From a virus: a stretch of 64,000 nt of DNA. Positions 305-41,818 of the stretch are shown in pieces. The notes under the pieces are model-generated. The model ran no database searches. It was not told where the DNA came from and saw only the letters and a list, made by a program, of their open reading frames with translations. The DNA is taken from the UHGV virus genome UHGV-1430452; one strand, written 5' to 3'. The position numbers were made by a program, and so were the translations under genes. Positions within the stretch are counted from its first letter, which is position 1. Each line of letters begins with the position of its first letter.

Positions 305-3300
305 TTACTTCACTCCTTTCAAATACTTAGATACTGTCGATGTAGAAACTCCCATCTTCTTAGCAATCTGTTCAAGTGTATAGTTAGATGCAGCCATTGC
401 TTTAGCTCTACTAACTTGTGCACTGCTTAGACTGTTGGTTAGTCTAGGAGTTGCTCGTTCTCTAAGGTTATCGATGTCTGTTGTGTTAAGGATTCTCTTA
501 AGCTGATTCTCACTAACAGCACCAGCTTGTATAGCTTCCCATTCTTTGTCACTGATCTCTATGTTACGATCTCTTCTAGAGATAGAGCCAACCTCTTGTC
601 TATACTTATTCAACGCCTGTTGGCTAAGCTTTCTCAACGGTTCTCCTTTAAGCTCTTCACCATGTTCTTCAAGGTAAGCCTTCTTCTTAGCTGCTATCTC
701 GGAATTAGCTTTTCGTTGAGCAGTTCTTTCTTTAATCTTATTGAGATCTGACTTATCGACTCTCTCCATTAAAGACTTAACCTCATCTCTATACGCAGCC
801 TTAGCACTTGCTGTTGTTTCGATCTTTCCTGTGTTAGCCATAGCTAATCTAGCTTTGTTACCAAGAGCTTTCATCTCATTAGCGTAGTCCGCATAGATAA
901 GTTCCATAGGATGTCTAGCTTTAGATACTAATTTATAAGCATCATCAGTCTCAGCCATCTTAGTACTTTGCTGCATACGGGTTTTAGTACGATATGTAAT
1001 ATCACCAGCGGCATTAGTATAGGTTACTTTCCCAGTGACGGGGTCTTTTTTCTCAATAGGGTTATACCTTTCGTAAGCTGCCTTATCTTTGGGATCATAT
1101 TCAATCTTCTTGCCATCAGCTGTTCGCACGGTAATAAGACCGGTCTTCTTATCTCGTTTTCTATCGACATAATATAGATCGTCGGCCTTCTTCCAAAGCT
1201 TGGCTCCATCTGGTTTGGTGGGGTCATAATCTTTACTACCTGGGATGTTTATTTTATATGAGCCTTGTCTTTTCTCAACTGAATATTGTCCCTTTGATCT
1301 TGATAAAATGGTAGAAGCTCCACCTGATCTTTCATTTCCGTCATCGTCAATACGAACCTGATACTTCTTTTTAAGTGCAGCAATATTGTTATCTATCTCA
1401 CTTTGTTTGTAATCAAGATGATGTTTCTCAGCATCAATAACAACCATGCTATGCTTAACTGCTCTTGCCAATTCTTTTTCATCAGCTCCAGCTAAAGTCA
1501 TATCAGTAATAAGATTGGATACAACACCCATCTGAGTTCCAGTGTTTTTCATGATGGGATATGCTTTTCCATTACGATAATAACGAACATTACCATCTGC
1601 ATCCTTCTTAGCAACACCACCATATTCAACCTTAGGATCAAATCCTTCAAGATCTTCAAGAGGTCGCTTATTAAGAATTTTTACCTTTCCACCTGGATCA
1701 TTGGTAGGAATACACATAACAGTATCGCCATCAAAGTCTGCACCTGAAAGCTGATCAGCAATCTTATGATTAATGCCGACTGCATCGATACTTTGTTTGC
1801 CAATTATTTTATCTCCCAGTGGATTCTTATTGTTAACTGTTAAGATAGGAATTTCAAATCGTCCGCCATGAGGATAACGAATAAGAGCGAGCTTAGTTCC
1901 ACTCTCGTAGTTTGGAGCATATACTTCATTGTCTTTTAAAGAGTTTATTGGAATAATAACGTGGTACTTCTGTCCAGGTAACGCTGCTGCTTTTAAATGT
2001 ACAGCCGCTGCATCGCAGCTATCTGCAAATTTCTCAAGCATATGTTTCTTAATAGTAGGATTAGTAATAGACATATACTCATCAAACTCAGCAAACTTAT
2101 CTTTCTTAGCAAGATCTAACTGTTTCTTAGCTAGAGTCTGTGACTGTTTAGCCAGGAACTGAGATGGTAATGCGTCCTGCCAATCATCCCAATCTCCTTC
2201 ATCGGATCTCTTATTAATGAGACCTAATTTCTTCTTACCGGTCTTAGGATCGTCATACCAATACTGTCCACCCTTGTCAGCATCTTTTATAAGAGAGCCA
2301 AATGGATTGTCTGGATCATCTTTCTTAATATTTTTAAGAACCGTACTTGTTTTATCGCCTAAAGCTGGAGTACCTTTTTTCTTATTCGTATTAAATATGA
2401 CATCTACTCCATCAGGCATGTTGTCAGAATATACTGCCATACCTTTAAGATAATGAGTTCCATCTACAAGAATACGAACCTGTGAATATCGTGAATCACC
2501 GAGATCAAGATCTTTACATCCTCTGCGAAGTTCAATGATACCGTCCTTATCAATACCCTTAAATCCATCAGCACCGACATCGTCTGCATATCGAACCATT
2601 AAACGTTTTGAATCAAGACTTGCAGGATATGTAAACTTCTTCTGGAATGTATCTCCTCCGTCTATTGATTCATAATCGTTAATTGTCTTTACTCTATCGT
2701 AGTCGTAGATTTCTTTATGTGCCGTTCCTGGTTTACAAAGAACTTTCTGGATGGTCTGTTGTCCTTTTGTATTTATCTGAGGAATACCACCAGTATACAC
2801 AGGATAACCTTCTGCTTTCTGTAAGTAATCAAGAGCAGTATTCAATCGTTCTTTGGATATGCCAAGAGATTTTTCAACACCAGCTGTTACATCGATCATA
2901 CCTTTTTGATCAACATGCTCTCGCAGAAAATCTACAGTCTCCATTGCCTGATGCATACGGTCTTCAGACTTAGGATTAAGAAGAGACCTTACTGTGGACT
3001 CTGGAATACCCATTTCTCTACCGATGGCAGTTGCTCCAAGTCCATCTTCTTTTAAAGATTTAGCTCTAGCTACCTGTTGTAATCTTTCTTCATAACCAGC
3101 CCAACTAATCTGCCTTCTATATTCTGTAGTTGTTAAGTCCATGGATTTAGCTATCGCATTATCTCCGGTCCAGGTCTTACCATTATCATCAGTGTAAGTA
3201 AAACCGGCTTTCTTAAGCTCTTTAACTCTTGCGAGGAAATCGGAACCATGTTGGTATCTATCTTTTCCACTTCCATAAGGATACCTACCGCTGCGGCGAG

Positions 3301-3475
3301 GCATACCATAATGCATAAGTTCATCTTCATTCGCGCTGTCTAAGCGATCAGACCAACCAAAATAAGAAAGGATCTCGTCAGCAACGGTGAACTCTTCATC
3401 GCTGTGCTCAAGATCCTCTTCTCCAAATATAGATTCTACAAGTTCGTTCAACGGAGGTTTCTCTAAGAACTCCAT
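305..3475 (-). CDS. single-chain two-barrel RNA polymerase homolog (YonO/RdRP-like) with N- and C-terminal HTH modules
   Basis: Beta-like DPBB signature YLKGMAVYSDNMPDGVDVIFNTN. Beta-prime-like signature LIRYPHGG...LSGADFDGDTVMCIP (DFDGD encoded ~1723-1740). HTH-like segments LGATAIGREMGIPESTVRSLLNP and YTLEQIAKKMGVSTSTVSKYLKG. Confidence 0.65.
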   Translation of the reverse strand: MEFLEKPPLNELVESIFGEEDLEHSDEEFTVADEILSYFGWSDRLDSANEDELMHYGMPRRSGRYPYGSGKDRYQHGSDFLARVKELKKAGFTYTDDNGKTWTGDNAIAKSMDLTTTEYRRQISWAGYEERLQQVARAKSLKEDGLGATAIGREMGIPESTVRSLLNPKSEDRMHQAMETVDFLREHVDQKGMIDVTAGVEKSLGISKERLNTALDYLQKAEGYPVYTGGIPQINTKGQQTIQKVLCKPGTAHKEIYDYDRVKTINDYESIDGGDTFQKKFTYPASLDSKRLMVRYADDVGADGFKGIDKDGIIELRRGCKDLDLGDSRYSQVRILVDGTHYLKGMAVYSDNMPDGVDVIFNTNKKKGTPALGDKTSTVLKNIKKDDPDNPFGSLIKDADKGGQYWYDDPKTGKKKLGLINKRSDEGDWDDWQDALPSQFLAKQSQTLAKKQLDLAKKDKFAEFDEYMSITNPTIKKHMLEKFADSCDAAAVHLKAAALPGQKYHVIIPINSLKDNEVYAPNYESGTKLALIRYPHGGRFEIPILTVNNKNPLGDKIIGKQSIDAVGINHKIADQLSGADFDGDTVMCIPTNDPGGKVKILNKRPLEDLEGFDPKVEYGGVAKKDADGNVRYYRNGKAYPIMKNTGTQMGVVSNLITDMTLAGADEKELARAVKHSMVVIDAEKHHLDYKQSEIDNNIAALKKKYQVRIDDDGNERSGGASTILSRSKGQYSVEKRQGSYKINIPGSKDYDPTKPDGAKLWKKADDLYYVDRKRDKKTGLITVRTADGKKIEYDPKDKAAYERYNPIEKKDPVTGKVTYTNAAGDITYRTKTRMQQSTKMAETDDAYKLVSKARHPMELIYADYANEMKALGNKARLAMANTGKIETTASAKAAYRDEVKSLMERVDKSDLNKIKERTAQRKANSEIAAKKKAYLEEHGEELKGEPLRKLSQQALNKYRQEVGSISRRDRNIEISDKEWEAIQAGAVSENQLKRILNTTDIDNLRERATPRLTNSLSSAQVSRAKAMAASNYTLEQIAKKMGVSTSTVSKYLKGVK

Positions 3476-4757: not shown

Positions 4758-5195
4758 TTAATCTATAGCTTCAAAGTGTAGACCTTTCGTATTGTTGTAG
4801 AAATCGTAGTTACAGCATTTACTTATTGTGGCTTCGTTCATTCCTATAGCTTTACTGCATTCCCTGATAGATTCATAAACTTCTCCAGTTTCCACAATAC
4901 GAATCTTTTTATTGCATCGCCTCCTTTCCAAATTATCAATTCTATTGTTACGTTTGTTACCATCGATATAACCGACACATGGTTTTCCTGGTTCTTCATC
5001 AAGAAATGCGTCAGCCACTAGTCGACCAACGCGCTTTGTTATTCTTCTGCCGTTCTCCTTGACCTTCACTGTTTCGTAACCCTTGTTATCAAGGCATGGA
5101 GTAAGTATTCTTCCAGTCTTTGAGTTCCTAACTCTTCCTTCGCTGCTTACCTCATATCCTTCAGCAATATTACTATCGATCCATTGTTCTTCCAT
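4758..5195 (-). CDS. NUMOD4/HNH-like homing endonuclease paralog with degenerate HNH motif
   Basis: N-terminal W..I..GYEVSSEGRVRN (NUMOD4). Central VGYIDGNKRNNRIDNLE, where Tyr replaces the first His of the HNH_3 motif. C-terminal ETGEVYESIRECSKAIGMNEATISKC (NUMOD1-like HTH). Confidence 0.7.
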   Translation of the reverse strand: MEEQWIDSNIAEGYEVSSEGRVRNSKTGRILTPCLDNKGYETVKVKENGRRITKRVGRLVADAFLDEEPGKPCVGYIDGNKRNNRIDNLERRRCNKKIRIVETGEVYESIRECSKAIGMNEATISKCCNYDFYNNTKGLHFEAID

Positions 5196-5206
5196 CGATA
5201 ACCTCC

Positions 5207-5713
5207 TTATTCTACTTTCTCAAACGTGTAACCTCCGCAAGTTCTCAATCTTCCTCGTAAATACTGTGACAACATACTTTGACTTATCCCAAGCGTTTTA
5301 GCACATTCGTTCAAAGATTCATATACCTCTCCGTTCTCTTTACATCTAACTTTTATTCGATTACTTCTACCACCACCATATGGTTTCATCAATCCATCTC
5401 GTATGGCGTATTGCACATTTTCTTTTCTTGTACACCATTCAAGATTATCTGCGTGGTTATTTGTTTTATCTCCATCTTTGTGATGAACATCTAGACCTGG
5501 ATAAGGTCCGCCTAGAAATGCTTCGGCCACGAGAATATTAACTCTCTTTTGAAACCCATATCCGCATCTAGATAATGTTACAGTTTTATAACCTTTGCTG
5601 TCAGTTCCTTGTTTTAGAATTCTTCTAGTATCGATATTCCTAACCTTGCCAGTATTACTAACTTCATATTGCGAACCAAAATCATGCACCGCCTCCCATT
5701 CTTCAACTTTCAT
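5207..5713 (-). CDS. HNH homing endonuclease (NUMOD4 + HNH + NUMOD1-like HTH)
   Basis: QYEVSNTGKVRN, then VHHKDGDKTNNHADNLEW (intact HNH), then ENGEVYESLNECAKTLGISQSMLSQYL. Confidence 0.8.
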   Translation of the reverse strand: MKVEEWEAVHDFGSQYEVSNTGKVRNIDTRRILKQGTDSKGYKTVTLSRCGYGFQKRVNILVAEAFLGGPYPGLDVHHKDGDKTNNHADNLEWCTRKENVQYAIRDGLMKPYGGGRSNRIKVRCKENGEVYESLNECAKTLGISQSMLSQYLRGRLRTCGGYTFEKVE

Positions 5714-7542: not shown

Positions 7543-7969
7543 AATTATGTGCAGACCGAAATTCGTGAAAAATAAAAAAAATACATTTTTAAATTAATAT
7601 ACAACTACTTTATACTTTGGTTATATAACTAAAGTATAAAGTTACCTTACAACAATATATAAAGAAAAAATTATTTTTTACGAATTATGTGCAGACCGAA
7701 ATTCATTTTTACCGTTTTTAGGGCCAAAATGACCGAAAATAGCCAATTTAGCCCCATTTTTGACGAAAAGTGCCGAATTATTAGCAGACCAAAAATAATT
7801 ATTAGCAGACCAAAATTCTATTTTACCATCATTTTCTTATTTATTAGCAGACCAAAAATACCATTTTCCTATTTATTAGCAGACCGAAATTCGGAATTAT
7901 TAGCAGACCAAAAATAGCAAAAACTGAATTATTAGCAGACCAAAAATAATTATTAGCAGACCAAAATTC
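7543..7969. repeat. iteron array: 9 copies of ~21-bp unit (A/T)ATTATTAGCAGACC(A/G)AAA(A/T)T
   Basis: Copies at 7543, 7683 (TGTGCAGACCGAAATTC variant), 7776, 7798, 7839, 7871, 7894, 7926 and 7948. All are direct, and the region is non-coding and AT-rich. Confidence 0.85.
7607..7642. promoter_or_regulatory. 36-bp near-perfect palindrome inside the iteron region
   Basis: ACTTTATACTTTGGTTATATAACTAAAGTATAAAGT with one mismatched pair. It is flanked by A/T runs between iteron copies 1 and 2. Confidence 0.8.
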
Positions 7970-7977
7970 GGCATATC

Positions 7978-8262
7978 TTACACATAATCGTCCTCATCTA
8001 TGTCGTCTTCATACTCAAATTCATCATTATAATCGTCACTACCAGATCCATATAACTCTTTTAAAGCTTCTTGACGTTTGTTAATACTATCGATAGATGC
8101 TTTATATGTACTGATTCTGATAAACTCCGACATAGACATTCCGCTAAGTCTAGCTGCCCTCTCTATAGACGAATACTCCTCGTCATTGCATTTAGAGAAA
8201 ATAGGTTTTCTTCTCGCTCCAAACTTCAACGGCCTCCCACGTTTCTTTTTAACTTCTTCCAT
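7978..8262 (-). CDS. ribbon-helix-helix-like DNA-binding protein with acidic tail
   Basis: KKKRGRPLKFG...SKCNDEEYSSIERAARLSGMSMSEFIRIS. Paralogous to 9504..9674 and 12151..12354. Confidence 0.6.
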   Translation of the reverse strand: MEEVKKKRGRPLKFGARRKPIFSKCNDEEYSSIERAARLSGMSMSEFIRISTYKASIDSINKRQEALKELYGSGSDDYNDEFEYEDDIDEDDYV

Positions 8263-8268
8263 AAAATA

Positions 8269-8430
8269 TCAATCCTCCTCGCGAGCACTAGACGAACCAT
8301 AACGATCTAATTCAATATCTACACCCTGCAAATTATCATAATTATGTATGGTAAGATCTGTCGATACCGTACCACCAAGCAATAAATCACCGATATCCTC
8401 AATACTAAGTTTTACAATAATTCTACTCAT
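8269..8430 (-). CDS. hypothetical small protein, 53 aa
   Basis: Hand-translated MSRIIVKLSIEDIGDLLLGG...SSSAREED. GGAGG RBS. The stop TGA lies inside the next gene's RBS cassette. Confidence 0.5.
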   Translation of the reverse strand: MSRIIVKLSIEDIGDLLLGGTVSTDLTIHNYDNLQGVDIELDRYGSSSAREED

Positions 8431-8445
8431 AAATATCAATCCTCC

Positions 8446-8820
8446 TTACCACTCATCAAACTCATGATAATCTTCGTCCTTGCAGCCACCCTTAGCCCAC
8501 AACAACACCTGTATCAGACGGTCAATATCATACTCTTCAAATATCAAGAATTGTTTGTAACCAAGGTAGTCATTAGTATCGCCATCATAAATCTCAAATG
8601 TCGCCTTAACAGATTCCTCATCGAACACGCTATCCAGATTCCACGGTTCCAACGGCATAACCCCATTAAAAACCCAATCGAAAATATAAAACATAGGATT
8701 TAATTCTCTACCATGATCGACCTTAATCGCTAATCTCTCTTCCAAAACACACGGAGTATACGGAGCAAATATAGTACCAGCTGGCATACGATTAAATGTT
8801 TTAAAATCTACTATCTTCAT
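8446..8820 (-). CDS. hypothetical protein, 124 aa
   Basis: Uninterrupted ORF in the co-directional gene train. No family recognised. Confidence 0.65.
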   Translation of the reverse strand: MKIVDFKTFNRMPAGTIFAPYTPCVLEERLAIKVDHGRELNPMFYIFDWVFNGVMPLEPWNLDSVFDEESVKATFEIYDGDTNDYLGYKQFLIFEEYDIDRLIQVLLWAKGGCKDEDYHEFDEW

Positions 8821-12698: not shown

Positions 12699-13034
12699 TC
12701 AAATATCGCCTTCTTTTCTATGCTGACTCTTCTCACTGTCAAACCCATCAGGATACCTCTCCATAAGTTTGCATAAGTTAGTCTCCATAATAGTCTGAAG
12801 ATCATAACCGATAGCTTTAGCACTGATTGCCAAATACCAAGCAACATCTCCAAGCTCTTTTGCGATATGCTTTCTATCGAGTTCATGACCCTGAAACAAA
12901 TGCTTCTTGAGAATATCGATACACTCTCCGGCCTCTCCATTAAGACCCATAAGACCATTTTGAAGCTGCTCCATGTCTGTTAACTCCTGGTTTGCTGATC
13001 TCCATGCTCCATCCTGATATGCGTTAATTTCCAT
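12699..13034 (-). CDS. mazG: MazG-like nucleoside triphosphate pyrophosphohydrolase
   Basis: LNGEAGECIDILKKHLFQGHELDRKHIAKELGDVAWYLAISAKAIGYDLQTIMETNLCKLMERYP matches the EAGE...ELGDxxWY MazG core. Confidence 0.8.
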   Translation of the reverse strand: MEINAYQDGAWRSANQELTDMEQLQNGLMGLNGEAGECIDILKKHLFQGHELDRKHIAKELGDVAWYLAISAKAIGYDLQTIMETNLCKLMERYPDGFDSEKSQHRKEGDI

Positions 13035-13133: not shown

Positions 13134-13625
13134 TTAATCGCACCACAACACAATCTGTCCAAGTTCTCTAGTTCTCTTTACATCTATAACTCTTTGATTT
13201 GAGCTTCCTCTCCATTTCAACTGTACATCTCTGAGTTTCTCGACATACGGTCCGTCTACCAAAACATCAATGTACTCCATAACCGGTAGATCTTTAACCG
13301 CTTCATATGTATATCCGGTGTAAAGCCAGATCGTTTTGTTTGGGAAAGATGCTTTTACTATTTCGCATAGTGTCAAAATATCCCATCGGTTTCCTTCAAA
13401 CAACGGATCTCCACCCGATAAAGTCAAACCGGAAATATAATCTTCATCGAGTAGATCTTCGAGTTCCTCCCAAGCATTTCCATCAAACAACAATCCATCA
13501 TCAGGGTTCCAAGTAACAGGATTCTGACATCCAGGGCATTCATGATCGCAGCCGGCAACCCATAGGACTACACGAAGACCGTCTCCGTTTTTCATATCGT
13601 CTTTCGTAATATCATGGTATCTCAT
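13134..13625 (-). CDS. nrdG: anaerobic ribonucleotide reductase activating protein (radical SAM)
   Basis: MKNGDGLRVVLWVAGCDHECPGCQNPVTW and SGGDPL motifs. The 163-aa size is typical of NrdG. Confidence 0.8.
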   Translation of the reverse strand: MRYHDITKDDMKNGDGLRVVLWVAGCDHECPGCQNPVTWNPDDGLLFDGNAWEELEDLLDEDYISGLTLSGGDPLFEGNRWDILTLCEIVKASFPNKTIWLYTGYTYEAVKDLPVMEYIDVLVDGPYVEKLRDVQLKWRGSSNQRVIDVKRTRELGQIVLWCD

Positions 13626-15026: not shown

Positions 15027-15707
15027 TTAATCCTCCTTTTTAGATCCGGTGATAAGTTCTGAATATGGAAGAGTTTCGATCCATCTACAGAATTCTCTCC
15101 ACTCATCGAGCTTGTGGTTTTTTCTCTGGTGATACATGGCTGCCAGGACTTCATAATTGAGCATAACAGTACGTTTCTGGTTATAGCTGCTCGGAAGAAG
15201 CTGAATCATCTGCCACCAACAGCCTTTGTCTTTAGATTTTAAATAAGATTCACGGCACCAGTTTAACTGCTCTATTGTGGTATTAAGAACGGATAATGAT
15301 GCTTTGCATAAATGTTCACAACTAAAATCCTCCAGCGTAAATTCCTTCGCATGAATCTTGTGCATAGTTGAGCAAGAGTTAGCAACAGTACCGATTTTAT
15401 AAGTATCGAACTCCTTCCACCAATACAAAGGCGCTGTAATATCCACATACACAGTAATCATCCGCATAAATTTACGATGCTCTGTACCAGCGTTCCGAAG
15501 TCTTTTCATAAGGTCGAGGTCGTTTGGCCCGATTATAAAACGGCATGTATTACCGCACCAATCCGGTTTGAAACCACACGATTTACAAAGACCAGTATCG
15601 CATCCGTTACTACTATCACTCTTCTCCCAACTATTCATCGGATTCCGCATACCTCTAATGGCAGCTTCCCATCCCATAACTTCTACATTCTCAATTTTAA
15701 TACTCAT
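15027..15707 (-). CDS. divergent ThyX-like (flavin-dependent thymidylate synthase fold) protein
   Basis: GTEHRKFMRMITVYVDITAPLYWWKEFDTYKIGTVANSCSTMH aligns to ThyX [27 protein letters not shown].SGRY. The RHR and SxRY catalytic motifs are replaced. A Cys-rich insert NGCDTGLCKSCGFKPDWCGNTC is present. Confidence 0.5.
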   Translation of the reverse strand: MSIKIENVEVMGWEAAIRGMRNPMNSWEKSDSSNGCDTGLCKSCGFKPDWCGNTCRFIIGPNDLDLMKRLRNAGTEHRKFMRMITVYVDITAPLYWWKEFDTYKIGTVANSCSTMHKIHAKEFTLEDFSCEHLCKASLSVLNTTIEQLNWCRESYLKSKDKGCWWQMIQLLPSSYNQKRTVMLNYEVLAAMYHQRKNHKLDEWREFCRWIETLPYSELITGSKKED

Positions 15708-15719
15708 AATTTAATCCTC

Positions 15720-16463
15720 CTATTCAAGCCAATTGTTATCTAAATAATAAAATCCAATTACACAAGCGATAATTAACACAATCCATACTACCCAAAAGAA
15801 TATAAGCCACCCGTTTCCGTATTTTAATGTCTCGTACGTTTCATCAATGCTCATATTGTTATAGAAATTAGTGTTATCAGGTATGGTTCCGTCTTTTAAC
15901 CTGGCAAATATAGTTCCTTTGAATTTGGTTGGTGTACCATAATACTTATATCGAACGTCACTAGATTCCTTAAGGGTATCGATATAATCCGGTGATGGAA
16001 TATTGATTTTACTAGACGGAAAAGTAACACCACAAAATATCAATTCTTTGCAGGTCTTATCCTCGCTTCCAACCCTATCCCATGTCCAGTAGTACTCTGT
16101 TCTTGTATGTGTGGTTCTATTTTTGCCAGAACCGGTAGTATAAGTGACAATTCGAGTATGCATTGTATATCGCTCTTTCACTTTTTCGACATACATATAT
16201 TTTCCGTCTATTTCCGGATAAGTAACCGTGTCAACAGCTTTTAGATTTCCATTCACAAAAGCGTTTCCGACATTGGTCCTCATACCATACTCGAATATAT
16301 CGGACTCTTTGATTTTTACTGCTTTGTTGTAGATCTCATTCTTATCCATTTGGTGCTCCGAAATCTTACTAGAAATCAGAACACCAATAAGTAATAGAAT
16401 GGCTATAATAGAAATACTGGCTAACACTTCCCTTTTAGTTATTTCAATATCATAGTCTCCCAT
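15720..16463 (-). CDS. membrane protein with N- and C-terminal TM helices, 247 aa
   Basis: TM segments LASISIIAILLLIGVLI and WLIFFWVVWIVLIIACVIGFYY. It lies immediately downstream of lemA. Confidence 0.6.
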   Translation of the reverse strand: MGDYDIEITKREVLASISIIAILLLIGVLISSKISEHQMDKNEIYNKAVKIKESDIFEYGMRTNVGNAFVNGNLKAVDTVTYPEIDGKYMYVEKVKERYTMHTRIVTYTTGSGKNRTTHTRTEYYWTWDRVGSEDKTCKELIFCGVTFPSSKINIPSPDYIDTLKESSDVRYKYYGTPTKFKGTIFARLKDGTIPDNTNFYNNMSIDETYETLKYGNGWLIFFWVVWIVLIIACVIGFYYLDNNWLE

Positions 16464-16468
16464 ATTAT

Positions 16469-17023
16469 TTACTCCTTGAATAAATCCTGCGGTGCGTCAA
16501 CTGGAGCATCATAATCCAAATATGTATAATCTTGTGTCTCGTATCCTAATAAACTTAAAAATGTTCTTGTCGGGAATTTACGTACATAGCGATTGTATTC
16601 TTTTATCTGCTTATTATAGTTACTACGATATTCCGCGATAAGATTCTCTGTAATAGATAATTCATTCATTAGTTCTTTATAGTTTGAATCTGACTTCAAC
16701 TCAGGATATGCTTCAGATACTGCGGTAATAGCTGTCGTCACATTCTCAATGTCTCCTGTTTTACCTCGGCCTTCCACAATTGACTTAAGAGTCTCTGCTT
16801 CGTGTTTATCGTACTGCTTCACACAATCTGCCAGATTCATAACGAGATCTACTCTTCGTTTTTCCTGAACCTTGATATCAGAATCAGCACTGTTTACTTG
16901 TTCTTCTAGAGCAATTGCTTTGTTCTGAGAACTCTGGACTACAAATACACCTAATAAAATAACTGCCAGAATACCAGCAGCTACGATTAACATTACCTTC
17001 CAATTTTTATTATTTCCTTTCAT
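16469..17023 (-). CDS. lemA: LemA family protein
   Basis: N-terminal TM plus ALEEQVNSADSDIKVQEKRRVDLVMNL...AYPELKSDSNYKELMNELSITENLIAEYRSNYNKQIKEYNRYVRKFP. Start placed at MKGNN (GGAG RBS) rather than the ORF-track start at 17065. Confidence 0.8.
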   Translation of the reverse strand: MKGNNKNWKVMLIVAAGILAVILLGVFVVQSSQNKAIALEEQVNSADSDIKVQEKRRVDLVMNLADCVKQYDKHEAETLKSIVEGRGKTGDIENVTTAITAVSEAYPELKSDSNYKELMNELSITENLIAEYRSNYNKQIKEYNRYVRKFPTRTFLSLLGYETQDYTYLDYDAPVDAPQDLFKE

Positions 17024-17199
17024 TTTTTGATCTCCTTTTCTAAATATTTTTTGATTTCTTCGCAACGTTCTGCATGTTTACAAGTAATGTCTGTATTAGT
17101 GCAATATCTACCCATATCGCATTCCAATTCAGCTTTACTAACATACGGATCGAAGTCAGGACAATTATGACAATAATCCTCCACGAATAATTTGATCAT
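17020..17199 (-). CDS. small Cys-rich protein, 59 aa
   Basis: Hand-translated MIKLFVEDYCHNCPDFDPYVSKAELECDMGRYCTNTDITCKHAERCEEIKKYLEKEIKK. AGGAGG RBS. ATGA overlap with lemA. Confidence 0.55.
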   Translation of the reverse strand: MIKLFVEDYCHNCPDFDPYVSKAELECDMGRYCTNTDITCKHAERCEEIKKYLEKEIKK

Positions 17200-37310: not shown

Positions 37311-37601
37311 CTATCGTAAAGATTTTGGGACAAGGCTTTTGATAATCTTTTTCTGATGCTCGTCCAGATCGTGATATAGAGTGAAACCCGTTGCCCCATT
37401 ATACTCATCGCCAAACTGTTTGTAGTACATAGATTGTTTCCATAACTCCGGATACTCTTTTTTGTACTTTGCGAGTTCTTTTGCTTTCTTGTCATACTGT
37501 TTATCCGAAATTATATTATTATCTAACTCGTAATAAATATATGAATGAAGTATGATATATCTTTGCAAGTAATCTATGTATTCGAGGGTTGTTAGTTCCA
37601 T
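37311..37601 (-). CDS. stand-alone protein resembling NAD-ligase (LigA) N-terminal domain Ia
   Basis: LHSYIYYELDNNIISDKQYDKKAKELAKYKKEYPELWKQS follows the LigA pattern H.Y.YYV.D.P.ISD.EYD.L..EL..LE...PEL. Confidence 0.4.
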   Translation of the reverse strand: MELTTLEYIDYLQRYIILHSYIYYELDNNIISDKQYDKKAKELAKYKKEYPELWKQSMYYKQFGDEYNGATGFTLYHDLDEHQKKIIKSLVPKSLR

Positions 37602-40600
37602 GGCAGCTCTACATCTTCATCATCGAATGGAATTTCCTCAGGAGATCCTTCCGGTATGTTCATGAAGTCTGGTAAATGAGAATCTCTAAAAGGAGGTTCA
37701 TGCCGATCTGAAGCATCCCAAGGCGGAGTACCAACATATGGATCGTCTGATATGAACCACTCAGCGTCTCCGTATTGACCAATAGTTTCAAGAGCATCAT
37801 CCACAAGCTTTCGATAATATGAACGATCAATATTTTCTTCATTTCCCGGAGACATCATTAACTCGGATTCAAGCCAACGGAAACCAGTTGTTCCTGTAGC
37901 TGCATAATATTTACCGTTCTGTTCTCGCATCAATAGTCCTCCACCCTTTCCAGGCTTAACCGGACAAAATTGCCCAACTTTACCTACGAAATGATAGTCA
38001 TGACCTTCAGCTATTAAATCGTTTAATCTTCGACACTCACTTTCGAAAGTTGTGTCCGATAACTTACCTTTCCTGTACTTATCTTCAAGTTTGGATAGTT
38101 CTTTTTCATACTCGGATACATCTGGAAGTTTTTCGTTCATATCCAAATATAAAGCAGATTTTACTGAGAATGCTTCGCACATATCTTTCAACTCAATTGG
38201 TTCTTTACTGAACAGTGTTTTAAATACATACGGAACTGCAAACTGTTTTCCAGTAGCTGTCCATTCTCCGGCATTCTTTCCATCTTTAAACCTAGCCACG
38301 TACACAGCATCATTTACTAAACAGAATTTTTCAAAGTTAGCCTCTGTTTCAAATGTATATCCGTATTCTTTACCGAATTTGGTTACGAAATCAATAATAT
38401 CAGGAGTAGCATCGGGTATCTTTATGGAATCTGTCTTGATATGACAAACAGTAAATCCTCGTTTCTGAACTTCTCTTTTCAATAATGTCATGAAGAGAGC
38501 TCCTCTTTTGGCAACAATGTTATCCTTATTTCTAGGATCTCTAAATTCATTTACGAAGCCAGCTGATGTCAAACCATAAATGGAATTGATAACAATCTTA
38601 AGTGCCTGCGCTAAATCAGCAGCCTGTTCTTCATTTAAGTATGGTTTCAACGCTCCACCTAATAATTGTCCAGCTGTTTCAAAGTCTTTATGCTTAATTG
38701 CAACACGAGCTTTTACAATATCCTCAAACCGTTTTGTATATTCTGGTCCAAATAGACATTCGAATATAATACTGTGAGGATGCTGAGAAGCAATGTCTCC
38801 ATCCCATACATTACCGTAATGCCCAGGTTCAGAGTAAACCCGACCGCCTTCTCCAATGGCTTCGCCTAAATATGTTGATTTACCAAACTCAAAAGTATAG
38901 CCTTTAAAGAATGGAAGAATGCTATAACCTTCTGGAAGCTTTTCGCCAGGAACGTAAGATCGATATAATGGAAGACCCTCAGAATCAAATACTCTGAAAT
39001 CATAATCATCTCCGAATTTAATTCTATATTCATCATAACGATCTGAGCTAACCGGTTCCGCCAAGTATCTATAGTTGAATACATTCTGCGGTTTTTTATT
39101 ATTTCCAAATATAATTCTTTTAGAAAGAGTATTTGTCGTATCATTAACTGTAACGTTTGTAATATCATGTAAGAGTTTTACAAGATCAACCTGAATCTGT
39201 CTAGCAACAAAGTCTGCTTTTCTTGCATTGAATACAGCTTCCGTCGCAATGACATCATTATCGCAATACTCAGCAACCTTTGCCCATAATTCTTCTGGAA
39301 CTGGTTGATCCCAAGGAAGACCAAGCTCTTGATGATGAATACCCAGTTCAATCTCCCATTTCTTTAAACTCTGTTTCACAGTTGACATATCATATACATC
39401 AATGTAACCAAGATTATATGCCTCACCAAACATGCCATTATCACGGCTTCCCTTTGGAGCATTAATAATTCTTTGAGATAACTTATATATTTCCTCATTT
39501 GTGTATCCCATAAGTCTAGCATAAATGATATGTCTGTCGTATTTACGTCCATTAAAATCAACAAGTTTAAACTTTAGAAGATTTTCTATTTCTGCTGGTG
39601 TAGGATTAATTAATCTAACTACTGTTTTTCCTTCTCCAGCAAACTTATAGTTTACCAAAAATAAATTTGGGAATACCTCACAATCATAGAATACAAGATC
39701 GTCAGTATCACCCTCATTACTTGTCTCTGAAGCCTCTTCACTCTTAAACGCCATCTGATTAACTAACTTCAAACACTCATCAGCCTGGTTACTACTACTC
39801 GCCGCCAAAGCAAATACAGCATTTTTCATATCAGACACATCATATCCAATACCACTCTCATAAGCCTCATCCAAAAGTTTCTTAATCATTTGAATACTTG
39901 GAGCTGTGTTACCCATAATTTCTTTATTCAGATGTTTCTTAAGAACGGATCTCAAATATTTCTCATTCTTAATACCATCAAAGTTAATCACATTTTTCAC
40001 CTCTTTCAACGGAAGACCTGAGCTAATTGTACGAATAACAAGATTGACACACTTAGTAAGTTTTCTTCTAAGAGATGTTTTACCGGTAAATACCTTAATC
40101 TCGATATCCTCATCAAATATACGACTTAATTCACTCACATCACCGTTATAAATATAATGAAGATGAATACCTCCACCACTTTTGCTTAACTCAGCATATG
40201 TTGGAGGCCATTTACTAGCTGCTTCAAGATTCTTCTCGAAACATTTATTACCATTCTCGTCCTTAATATCAAAGTCAATAACTACATGATTTTCAGGGAC
40301 CTTGACGTAATGAAGTTTTGATGTGTCAAGTTCTGATAGGGTAGTTGAAACTTCATCCCATGGCTTCGTCGGAGTTTCTTTTGAAGTAGCATATTGAGCT
40401 GGACAATCAGAACATTCTTTATCAAAAATAGACTCCTGTTCTTCAAATATAAGCCAGCTCTCAGTTTTCTCATCTCCAATAGGTTTCTCTGCTTTAACCT
40501 TTTTCTTCCCACCAATAGAGTCTTCGAAAATATCAGTCTTAAAACCGTCGTAATAACTCAGCAGCTTACTTCCATCTTCTTTCTCCACCTTCTCATCAAA

Positions 40601-41818
40601 TTCCAAAAAATAGTTTCTCAACTCGTCTTTGAATTTTGTCTTAGAAAATGGATACGGCACTTTTGCTTCCTCACAGTAGTTTTTATACATCTCCCATGCT
40701 GCTTTTAGCGTAGTACCATCTTCTTTCTTGAAGACACTGAATGAATCACATACGAAGTTATAAAAGTCATTAGAAGCCATAAGCATGTCCTTCGGAGCGT
40801 AAGTATCGTAATACTCTGGATCTTCTTTAAAGACTTGTAAACAATGATATGCGATTGCTCCCAACTCAAAATCAACCTGTTTGGTCAATCTACGATATTC
40901 TCGAATCGGTATCTTGTTTCCAGTAGGACGAACGTCAATCAAACGCCTTAGTAAACCAGACTTAGCATCAGTGATCTTAACAGGTGTGTTTGTACCCATA
41001 AATAAAAAACATTTGAATCTTGTTTCATATTGTCCTTTAAATTTTTCATTCATGGTCATTATCTCGTGTGAAATCACCGAGTTTAAGCGCGTATTATCTT
41101 CGATTTTTGATAAATCACCATCATGTTGTATCGCTACAAGAGGGTTATTCTTAAACGGTTCCAGAGCGAAAACATTATTCGGATTACCCAAAGCTTTTGC
41201 GTCAAAAGAACAACAATATCCTTCAAATAATTTCTCGATAATATTTATGATAGTTGATTTACCAGTACCACCAGCTCCGTAAAGCACCAGGAACTTTTGA
41301 AGTATTTTTGATTCCCCAGATACAACGGAGCCGATAGCCCATTCTATTTTACGTCGTTCTTCTTCGGAATATAGAGTACCGATGAGTTTATCCCATGCAG
41401 AAATATCGCCAGGTTCGAGAGGATACGGGAGTCTCTTGCTTGCGAAATTCTCTCTGCTTAATTCTGTGTTTGAAAATATAAGTTCATCATCGAGTACAGC
41501 AAAGTTATCACGCATCTGTTTCTGACAATATTTATGGAACTTATCGATTGAGCCACTGTCAGCATCCCACATATACTTAATTACAGGAGTACCTTCAAGA
41601 CGTCCTTCATTTTCAGCGACATATCTATCAAGTTCTCTATCTACAAGACGGGTTACATCGTCTTCATCTGTACTCCACATCTTTCGATCTTCATCCCAGA
41701 TAGCGTAAAAGTCCCTACCTCGAATCATGAGATCTTTAGATTTCAACATTTTGAACTTAGGAGAAACATCAACACTGCTTTTATTCGTCTTCGTTGATAC
41801 TGTCATGAAGTCCAACAT
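37592..41818 (-). CDS. fused SF3 helicase / AEP primase-polymerase / family-B DNA polymerase
   Basis: Walker A YGAGGTGKST. AEP motifs VVIDFDIKD and SGGGIHLHY. PolB ExoI FYDCEVF, ExoII YCDNDV, motif A DGDIASQHPHS, motif B KIVINSIYG, motif C HIKTDSI. Confidence 0.8.
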   Translation of the reverse strand: MLDFMTVSTKTNKSSVDVSPKFKMLKSKDLMIRGRDFYAIWDEDRKMWSTDEDDVTRLVDRELDRYVAENEGRLEGTPVIKYMWDADSGSIDKFHKYCQKQMRDNFAVLDDELIFSNTELSRENFASKRLPYPLEPGDISAWDKLIGTLYSEEERRKIEWAIGSVVSGESKILQKFLVLYGAGGTGKSTIINIIEKLFEGYCCSFDAKALGNPNNVFALEPFKNNPLVAIQHDGDLSKIEDNTRLNSVISHEIMTMNEKFKGQYETRFKCFLFMGTNTPVKITDAKSGLLRRLIDVRPTGNKIPIREYRRLTKQVDFELGAIAYHCLQVFKEDPEYYDTYAPKDMLMASNDFYNFVCDSFSVFKKEDGTTLKAAWEMYKNYCEEAKVPYPFSKTKFKDELRNYFLEFDEKVEKEDGSKLLSYYDGFKTDIFEDSIGGKKKVKAEKPIGDEKTESWLIFEEQESIFDKECSDCPAQYATSKETPTKPWDEVSTTLSELDTSKLHYVKVPENHVVIDFDIKDENGNKCFEKNLEAASKWPPTYAELSKSGGGIHLHYIYNGDVSELSRIFDEDIEIKVFTGKTSLRRKLTKCVNLVIRTISSGLPLKEVKNVINFDGIKNEKYLRSVLKKHLNKEIMGNTAPSIQMIKKLLDEAYESGIGYDVSDMKNAVFALAASSSNQADECLKLVNQMAFKSEEASETSNEGDTDDLVFYDCEVFPNLFLVNYKFAGEGKTVVRLINPTPAEIENLLKFKLVDFNGRKYDRHIIYARLMGYTNEEIYKLSQRIINAPKGSRDNGMFGEAYNLGYIDVYDMSTVKQSLKKWEIELGIHHQELGLPWDQPVPEELWAKVAEYCDNDVIATEAVFNARKADFVARQIQVDLVKLLHDITNVTVNDTTNTLSKRIIFGNNKKPQNVFNYRYLAEPVSSDRYDEYRIKFGDDYDFRVFDSEGLPLYRSYVPGEKLPEGYSILPFFKGYTFEFGKSTYLGEAIGEGGRVYSEPGHYGNVWDGDIASQHPHSIIFECLFGPEYTKRFEDIVKARVAIKHKDFETAGQLLGGALKPYLNEEQAADLAQALKIVINSIYGLTSAGFVNEFRDPRNKDNIVAKRGALFMTLLKREVQKRGFTVCHIKTDSIKIPDATPDIIDFVTKFGKEYGYTFETEANFEKFCLVNDAVYVARFKDGKNAGEWTATGKQFAVPYVFKTLFSKEPIELKDMCEAFSVKSALYLDMNEKLPDVSEYEKELSKLEDKYRKGKLSDTTFESECRRLNDLIAEGHDYHFVGKVGQFCPVKPGKGGGLLMREQNGKYYAATGTTGFRWLESELMMSPGNEENIDRSYYRKLVDDALETIGQYGDAEWFISDDPYVGTPPWDASDRHEPPFRDSHLPDFMNIPEGSPEEIPFDDEDVELPWN

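Follow-up and report, generated by a model that had tools for sequence, protein, structure and literature searches.

To our knowledge, thymidylate is made de novo by only two routes, those of ThyA and ThyX. ThyX, the flavin-dependent thymidylate synthase and an antibacterial drug target, is a homotetramer in which the active sites are shared between subunits. It binds flavin adenine dinucleotide (FAD) and, using CH2-H4folate and NADPH, turns deoxyuridine monophosphate (dUMP) into deoxythymidine monophosphate (dTMP). Its RHR motif is the clamp for the FAD pyrophosphate, R174 grips and polarises the uracil ring, R90 contacts uracil and is, together with R147, a binding arginine for dUMP, and R147 and R74 contact the phosphate. 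In the enzyme of Thermotoga maritima, whose residue numbers are used here for ThyX, R90 and R147 are required for dUMP binding and catalysis. The sole known precedent for recruitment of the ThyX fold beyond dUMP is PolB of polyoxin biosynthesis, a ThyX-like C5-methylase of uridine monophosphate (UMP) and dUMP (PDB 4P5A). PolB keeps the ThyX catalytic residues and is recognisable by sequence as ThyX (E = 3.7e-34 to the T. maritima protein). We describe here a family of phage proteins for which neither is the case, represented by a gene of the virus genome UHGV-1430452. This gene, located at positions 15027-15707 on the minus strand of the 64,000-nucleotide stretch that was analysed (the window), encodes a 226-amino-acid protein from a highly divergent part of the Thy1/ThyX superfamily, a clade of very large size that has no name.

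A divergent phage family with a predicted ThyX fold

The open reading frame (ORF) has an ATG start located 7 nt downstream of a Shine-Dalgarno motif (AGGAGGA, 15715-15721, minus strand, read from the sequence) and belongs to a tight array of co-directional genes. The initial annotation of this DNA had given exactly the same ORF boundaries, and every peptide segment that it quoted was found in the translation. The protein matches PHROG 6721 over its full length, its residues 2-221 covering positions 7-216 of the 218 in the profile (E = 6.9e-86); the two represent the same family throughout, and the PHROG entry carries neither a function annotation nor a fold assignment. No match was obtained with Pfam, including Thy1 (PF02511), or with NCBIfam, even at E ≤ 10. 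Sequence searches against the PDB, with the single sequence or with a 26-sequence profile, returned chance matches only, and none of the PADLOC defence models matched at E ≤ 0.01.

Clustering at 90% identity divides the family into more than 8,000 groups; at 50% identity, there are 4,868 cluster representatives at E ≤ 1e-3 or 1,480 at E ≤ 1e-30. In the sources checked, its members are called ‘hypothetical protein’ only. We found no description of the family in the searchable literature, Pfam, NCBIfam or the PHROG annotations, and neither that literature nor the papers on the carrier phages describe a ThyX-like or ThyX-paralogue phage family. All 28 matching phage records of INPHARED/GenBank come from phages of strict anaerobes or from gut metagenome phages, the named hosts being Clostridium, Enterocloster, Clostridioides, Fusobacterium and Desulfovibrio. 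In GTDB, at least 595 species carry the family, nearly all of them gut Clostridia, cultured isolates included; these copies are evidently prophages.

An AlphaFold2 model was built from 26 homologues (mean predicted local distance difference test, pLDDT, of 84; predicted template modelling score, pTM, of 0.79). When this model was compared with the PDB using Foldseek, the top matches were all ThyX structures, with template modelling (TM) scores of up to 0.62-0.66. In BFVD, members of the family itself, entered as ‘Uncharacterized protein’, came nearest, and canonical THY1 proteins of viruses came next. The order of the secondary-structure elements is common to the model and to ThyX (e.g. T. maritima TM0449, PDB 1O26, and the Helicobacter pylori protein, PDB 3AH5). 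The 226-amino-acid protein is predicted from this model to have the three-dimensional fold of ThyX, and on this point the model and the Foldseek matches bear out the initial annotation. Its further statement that the sequence aligns with ThyX position by position did not hold, as the similarity is at chance level. BLASTP against T. maritima ThyX (a query identical to the sequence of PDB entry 1KQ4) gave E = 2.1 with 9/42 identities. Comparison of a family profile of 151-157 sequences with a ThyX profile of 9-16 sequences by hhalign gave E values of 0.07-0.12 and a probability below 1%; the alignment was non-significant in the three settings used, and served for register only.

Homology to Thy1 is nevertheless supported by an intermediate sequence that matches both sides. 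The protein gp68 of Clostridium phage phiCTP1 aligns with the 226-amino-acid protein (tblastn, E = 2e-28, 35-37% identity over 95% of the length) and also with Pfam Thy1 (E = 4.5e-5, profile positions 39-185 of 191), in the latter case with 23.8 bits, i.e. one bit below the gathering cutoff of 24.8 bits. Moreover, a home-made hidden Markov model of ThyX matches the C-terminus of gp68, and the family member of phage Fnu1 shows a weak match (0.13) to the same Pfam Thy1 model that misses the 226-amino-acid protein.

Residues of the putative active site

The family was compared with a reference set of 16 ThyX sequences (viral homologues), and conservation was counted over 151 representatives of 50%-identity clusters or over 157 sequences. 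BLASTP and hhalign chose the same register (P93 of the phage protein = P69 of ThyX). The hhalign register fits the secondary structure of the model: its strand 85-93 falls on ThyX strand 59-68, and its helix 94-103 on ThyX helix 69-79. In this register, the core motif PLYWWKEFDTYKIGTVANSCSTMHKI (residues 93-118; 15354-15431, minus strand) is the counterpart of ThyX P69-S92, with RHR replaced by TYK and SGRY by STMH. Residues R74 and Q75 of ThyX correspond to K98 and E99, R78-H79-R80 to T102-Y103-K104, N85 to N110 and S88 to S113. The ThyX motif R-H-R-x7-S is therefore not found; T102-Y103-K104-x8-S113 stands in its place, with the serine and the basic third position alone being kept. The C-terminal motif NYEVLAAMYHQRKNHKLDEW (residues 184-203; 15099-15158, minus strand) is the counterpart of ThyX N163-I183 and retains equivalents of N163 (N184), R174 (R195), H178 (H198) and E182 (E202). 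Upstream of the core, in the segment H77-R78-K79-F80-M81-R82 (15462-15479, minus strand), H77 corresponds to ThyX H53, and K79 and R82 replace T55 and E58 in the hhalign register; these three residues are conserved in 126/157, 147/157 and 151/157 sequences, respectively. The family also adds an invariant N-terminal motif, GMRNPxNSWxKSDS, at the place where ThyX has A-A-R-V-S. This motif (GMRNPMNSWEKSDS in the 226-amino-acid protein, residues 19-32; 15612-15653, minus strand) is specific to the family, and its residues R21, N22, S26 and D31 are each more than 90% conserved among the 151 representatives.

Among the approximately 13 positions that are invariant in the reference ThyX sequences, four are identical in the phage protein (N85, S88, R174 and E182) and three show conservative changes (R74K, Q75E and H79Y). 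The six others have unrelated replacements. In the low-confidence alignment, E86 becomes S111, R90 becomes M115, Y91 becomes H116 and R147 becomes I168 (family conservation of each above 92%), and E144 becomes W165 and Q180 becomes L. The T-Y-K that replaces RHR and the S, M, H, W and I that replace E86, R90, Y91, E144 and R147 vary as little within the family as their counterparts do in ThyX. The equivalent of the uracil-contacting R174, R195, is an arginine in 148/157 sequences and is invariant in distant members. Nine residues are invariant down to members with about 30% identity (W97, Y103, S111, S113, M115, H116, P172, R195 and H198), and in total about 50 positions exceed 90% conservation, the majority being polar or aromatic. 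Because polar and aromatic residues are so strictly conserved, several of them at positions aligned with the ThyX active site, this pattern suggests a remodelled working pocket and not the decay of a ThyX copy.

In the reference set itself, K-H-V is present instead of the textbook RHR in 12-13 of the 16 viral proteins, which share about 40% identity with the T. maritima enzyme; R74, E86, S88, R90, Y91, R147 and R174 are invariant in all 16. RHR alone is thus a poor discriminator, and the joint loss of R90 and R147 would be, as judged from the alignment, a stronger signal than the loss of RHR. The initial annotation had correctly reported that both the RHR and the SxRY signatures were altered. 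The counterpart that it proposed for RHR (KEF/DTY) differs from the T102-Y103-K104 found in our register. Its replacement of SxRY by CSTMH holds as far as the alteration is concerned (S113-T114-M115-H116), but the serine of the motif is retained.

Proposed function and alternatives

The reading that we favour, with a probability of roughly 0.45, is that the gene encodes an active ThyX-derived enzyme of pyrimidine nucleotides, whose product would be dTMP or a C5-modified dUMP. Because the uracil-contacting arginine and the motif serine are retained, the protein may handle a uracil-type nucleotide and fill or replace the thymidylate-synthase step. The same is suggested by the location of the gene in modules for deoxynucleoside triphosphate (dNTP) supply and replication that lack a canonical thymidylate synthase. 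Like ThyX, the family is found in the nucleotide/replication module of phages, and no canonical ThyA or ThyX was found in the window, in 87 viral/phage loci or in 80 prophage loci (167 loci). Since R90, R147, E86, E144 and RHR are lost, the protein cannot act in exactly the manner of ThyX: the way in which the phosphate of the substrate is held, the cofactor or the outcome of the reaction must be different. The enzyme would be active, with a remodelled pocket in which a pyrimidine nucleotide of the uracil type still stacks on a planar cofactor, and would perform ThyX-like chemistry at C5, either to yield dTMP by an unusual route or to yield a C5-modified dUMP. Candidates for the altered phosphate and cofactor contacts would be the new invariant residues K79, R82, K98 and K104. 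A cysteine-rich loop, described below, would be an accessory of this lineage only, probably structural (zinc). Together with an anaerobic ribonucleotide reductase (RNR), a pyrophosphatase of the MazG/dUTPase type and a deoxynucleoside monophosphate (dNMP) kinase, in genomes that have them, the enzyme would supply the phage's own dNTP pool.

Several points weigh against this function. The residue mapping is built on an alignment that has no significance of its own. With R90, R147, E86, E144 and RHR lost, the binding of both flavin and dUMP is in doubt, as far as the aligned residues indicate. A conserved neighbouring gene for folate metabolism, a flavin reductase or another redox partner was sought and none was found. 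The association with MazG and NrdD is clade-specific, and neither is an obligatory partner. Genes of modification pathways (e.g. kinases or transferases acting on 5-hydroxymethyldeoxyuridine) do not accompany the family gene. A bolder version of the proposal is doubtful: in phages of strict anaerobes, the family would be a new branch of enzymes within the ThyX superfamily, its active site rebuilt with the motifs S-x-S-x-M-H and R-x-N-H-K and without RHR, R90 and R147. This branch would make either thymidylate, under a cofactor or reductant regime unlike those of ThyA and ThyX, or a pyrimidine nucleotide with a non-canonical modification at C5, which would then be found in the DNA of the phage.

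The protein could instead be a true thymidylate synthase that converts dUMP to dTMP for replication in anaerobic hosts and has diverged beyond sequence recognition. The gene is indeed found in a module where other phages encode such an enzyme, a canonical ThyA or ThyX is never nearby, equivalents of S88, R174, H53 and N85 are kept, and RHR is not universal in viral ThyX homologues. We nevertheless consider this unlikely, as R90, R147, E86, Y91 and E144, invariant in 16/16 ThyX sequences, have given way to non-equivalent and themselves invariant M, I, S, H and W, and Pfam Thy1 misses the protein. The view of the initial annotation, that a standard thymidylate synthase is unlikely, is reasonable given that, of about 13 residues invariant in ThyX, six have been exchanged, R90 and R147 among them; it is unproven, with R174, S88 and H53 kept, no canonical enzyme alongside and the gene lying in the replication/nucleotide module, where a thymidylate synthase is encoded in other phages. 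The loss of several catalytic arginines and the lack of an obligatory partner gene would also be compatible with a non-catalytic ThyX derivative, i.e. a nucleotide or cofactor binder, a regulator, or a poison subunit that joins the ThyX tetramer of the host and redirects its nucleotide metabolism; many hosts of this kind, such as Clostridioides difficile, use ThyX. The approximately 50 near-invariant, mostly polar or aromatic positions (including S113, R195, H77 and H198), as well as the near-invariance of the replacement residues at the other active-site positions, are typical of a working pocket and make this second alternative quite improbable. Moreover, the hosts belong to three phyla, and their ThyX proteins differ or are absent.

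There is still less to recommend an enzyme that acts on phage DNA or tRNA instead of a free nucleotide, modifying uracil or a different base in the polymer; the arginines that bind the monophosphate would then have been lost because the substrate is polymeric. The loss of the R90 and R147 equivalents, the new invariant basic residues (K79, R82, K98, K104, K117, R152, R179 and K199), the isoelectric point of 8.2, the DNA cytosine methyltransferase adjoining the family gene in Fnu1 and the frequent N6 methyltransferase neighbours are in line with such an activity. However, we know of no ThyX-fold enzyme acting on polymers, no DNA-binding domain was detected in Pfam scans, and the methyltransferases are ordinary phage genes that are loosely linked to the family. 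The initial annotation had suggested a repurposed nucleotide- or nucleic-acid-modifying enzyme; its nucleotide part is our best current guess, while the nucleic-acid part found no specific support.

The last alternative concerns the hypervariable insert between helix 1 and helix 2 (residues 33-56; 15540-15611, minus strand), a feature of the phage family relative to ThyX, which could be a metal or iron-sulphur redox centre defining a new mechanism for the family. In the 226-amino-acid protein, this insert contains five cysteines (C36, C41, C44, C51 and C55; CX4CX2CX6CX3C), not the six counted previously, and AlphaFold2 confidence is low across it (pLDDT of about 55). The presence of at least four loop cysteines in 37/151 representatives, with CxxC in 34, and the anaerobic hosts would suit a redox centre. 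However, the loop varies from 0 to 112 residues among the 151 representatives, 71 of them have no cysteine in it, and distant members lack the loop, as does gp14 of phage ProddE. Being unconserved, it cannot be essential to the function of the family and would be at most a structural zinc knuckle in some lineages. A redox role as defining feature is hardly credible and is essentially refuted, and the weight that the initial annotation gave to the insertion is not supported, since the loop is variable and lineage-specific, plausibly an accessory in the form of a small zinc knuckle.

The family could stand for a way of making thymidylate that has gone unrecognised, for a new activity that modifies pyrimidines or for a tool with which viruses act on the nucleotide metabolism of the host. 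In each case, it has thousands of members with a predicted ThyX fold and a different, strictly conserved pocket, common in prophages of gut bacteria and invisible to Pfam and NCBIfam. The question is directly testable because isolated phages with cultivable hosts carry the family: PMBT24 (Enterocloster bolteae), ProddE (Desulfovibrio), phiCTP1, Fnu1 and XP41-N3. At the minimum, PHROG 6721 and thousands of ‘hypothetical proteins’ would receive a fold and a superfamily assignment.

Gene neighbourhood and other features of the window

The window holds the whole non-structural module of the phage, with the structural genes to the right and the end of the contig about 300 bp to the left. Two genes lie about 1.4-2 kb downstream of the ThyX-like gene: one for a MazG-like nucleoside triphosphate (NTP) pyrophosphohydrolase (12699-13034, minus strand; Pfam MazG, 2.9e-8; PHROG 229, 5e-42) and one for an NrdG-like radical S-adenosylmethionine activase (13134-13625, minus strand; Pfam Fer4_12, 7.8e-44; PHROG 626, 5e-58). 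The MazG and NrdG neighbours named in the initial annotation were thus both present, and it had rightly placed the gene among those of nucleotide metabolism. NrdD was absent from the 64-kb window although the whole non-structural module lies there; in related phages, NrdD and NrdG are carried together. The NrdG-like activase may serve the NrdD of the host or another glycyl-radical enzyme.

MazG is near the family gene in 36/87 viral loci versus 7/80 prophage loci, and NrdD in 7/80 prophage loci. Among 80 related viral loci, the neighbours include a helicase (50 loci), a DUF5906 primase-polymerase (38), MazG (31), a phage single-stranded DNA-binding protein (29), a DUF2800 nuclease (28), an N6 methyltransferase (28), DUF5662 (27) and NrdD (23). 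The nearest conserved neighbours are small cysteine-rich proteins or spurious antisense ORFs of the simple ORF caller. In PMBT24, a dNMP kinase gene is located two genes from the family gene, and the paper on this phage gives a dUTPase and an anaerobic RNR; nowhere does it mention a thymidylate synthase. The family gene is near that of Pol III alpha in phiCD211 and phiCTP1. In the T7-like Desulfovibrio phage ProddE, it is located between the genes for DNA polymerase and exonuclease, followed by those for a DR2231-type NTP pyrophosphohydrolase, polynucleotide kinase, NrdD and NrdG. The recurrent neighbours of the family also include, at 7706-8554 of a related IMG/VR contig (L094), a protein homologous to the Thoeris inhibitor Tad3 (PF25185, E = 2.4e-29).

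Some members (P0134, P0208 and P0249) carry an in-frame insertion of an HNH_3/NUMOD4 homing endonuclease, with or without a helix-turn-helix (HTH) domain, after about residue 133. When members extended by a long stretch at the C-terminus were scanned with Pfam, no domains beyond these HNH/NUMOD4 insertions were detected. Homing endonucleases typically settle in conserved, important replication and nucleotide genes of phages. Free-standing HNH/NUMOD4 homing-endonuclease genes are also present in the window, at 4758-5195 and 5207-5713 (minus strand).

Directly upstream of the ThyX-like gene, at 15720-17065 (minus strand), are encoded a 247-amino-acid membrane protein of PHROG 3886, a family without known function, and a member of the LemA family (PHROG 1383, with the annotation virion structural protein), an odd pairing within the replication module. 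Two giant early proteins are encoded on the minus strand: a DUF5906 primase-polymerase-like protein of 1408 amino acids (37592-41818), conserved in 38/80 related loci, and a protein of 1056 amino acids (305-3475) in which only a C-terminal HTH is recognisable, conserved in 30/80 related loci. The replication region also encodes a 522-amino-acid protein with DUF2828 and DUF7788 domains (25967-27535, minus strand). A scan for promoters and terminators gave site frequencies that were not above those of shuffled sequence. Stop-codon recoding was considered for the ORF-poor region of 10.5-12.7 kb and rejected, as ORFs of 66-96 amino acids are densely packed there in the standard code.

The sole block on the plus strand, at 56053-58312, is a lysogeny module with a repressor-like HTH gene as well as a gene for a large serine recombinase, and GC skew changes sign at this module; the phage is probably temperate. 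A tRNA gene at 47958-48031 (minus strand) matches the tRNA model of Rfam with 62 bits; its anticodon could not be assigned by ARAGORN, and its minimum-energy fold has an anticodon loop of 6 nt (CUUAUA) instead of 7. Finally, three DUF6353 paralogues are encoded within 6 kb, at 44029-44967, 47042-47869 and 49330-50106 (minus strand), with Pfam E values from 1e-58 to 4e-89.
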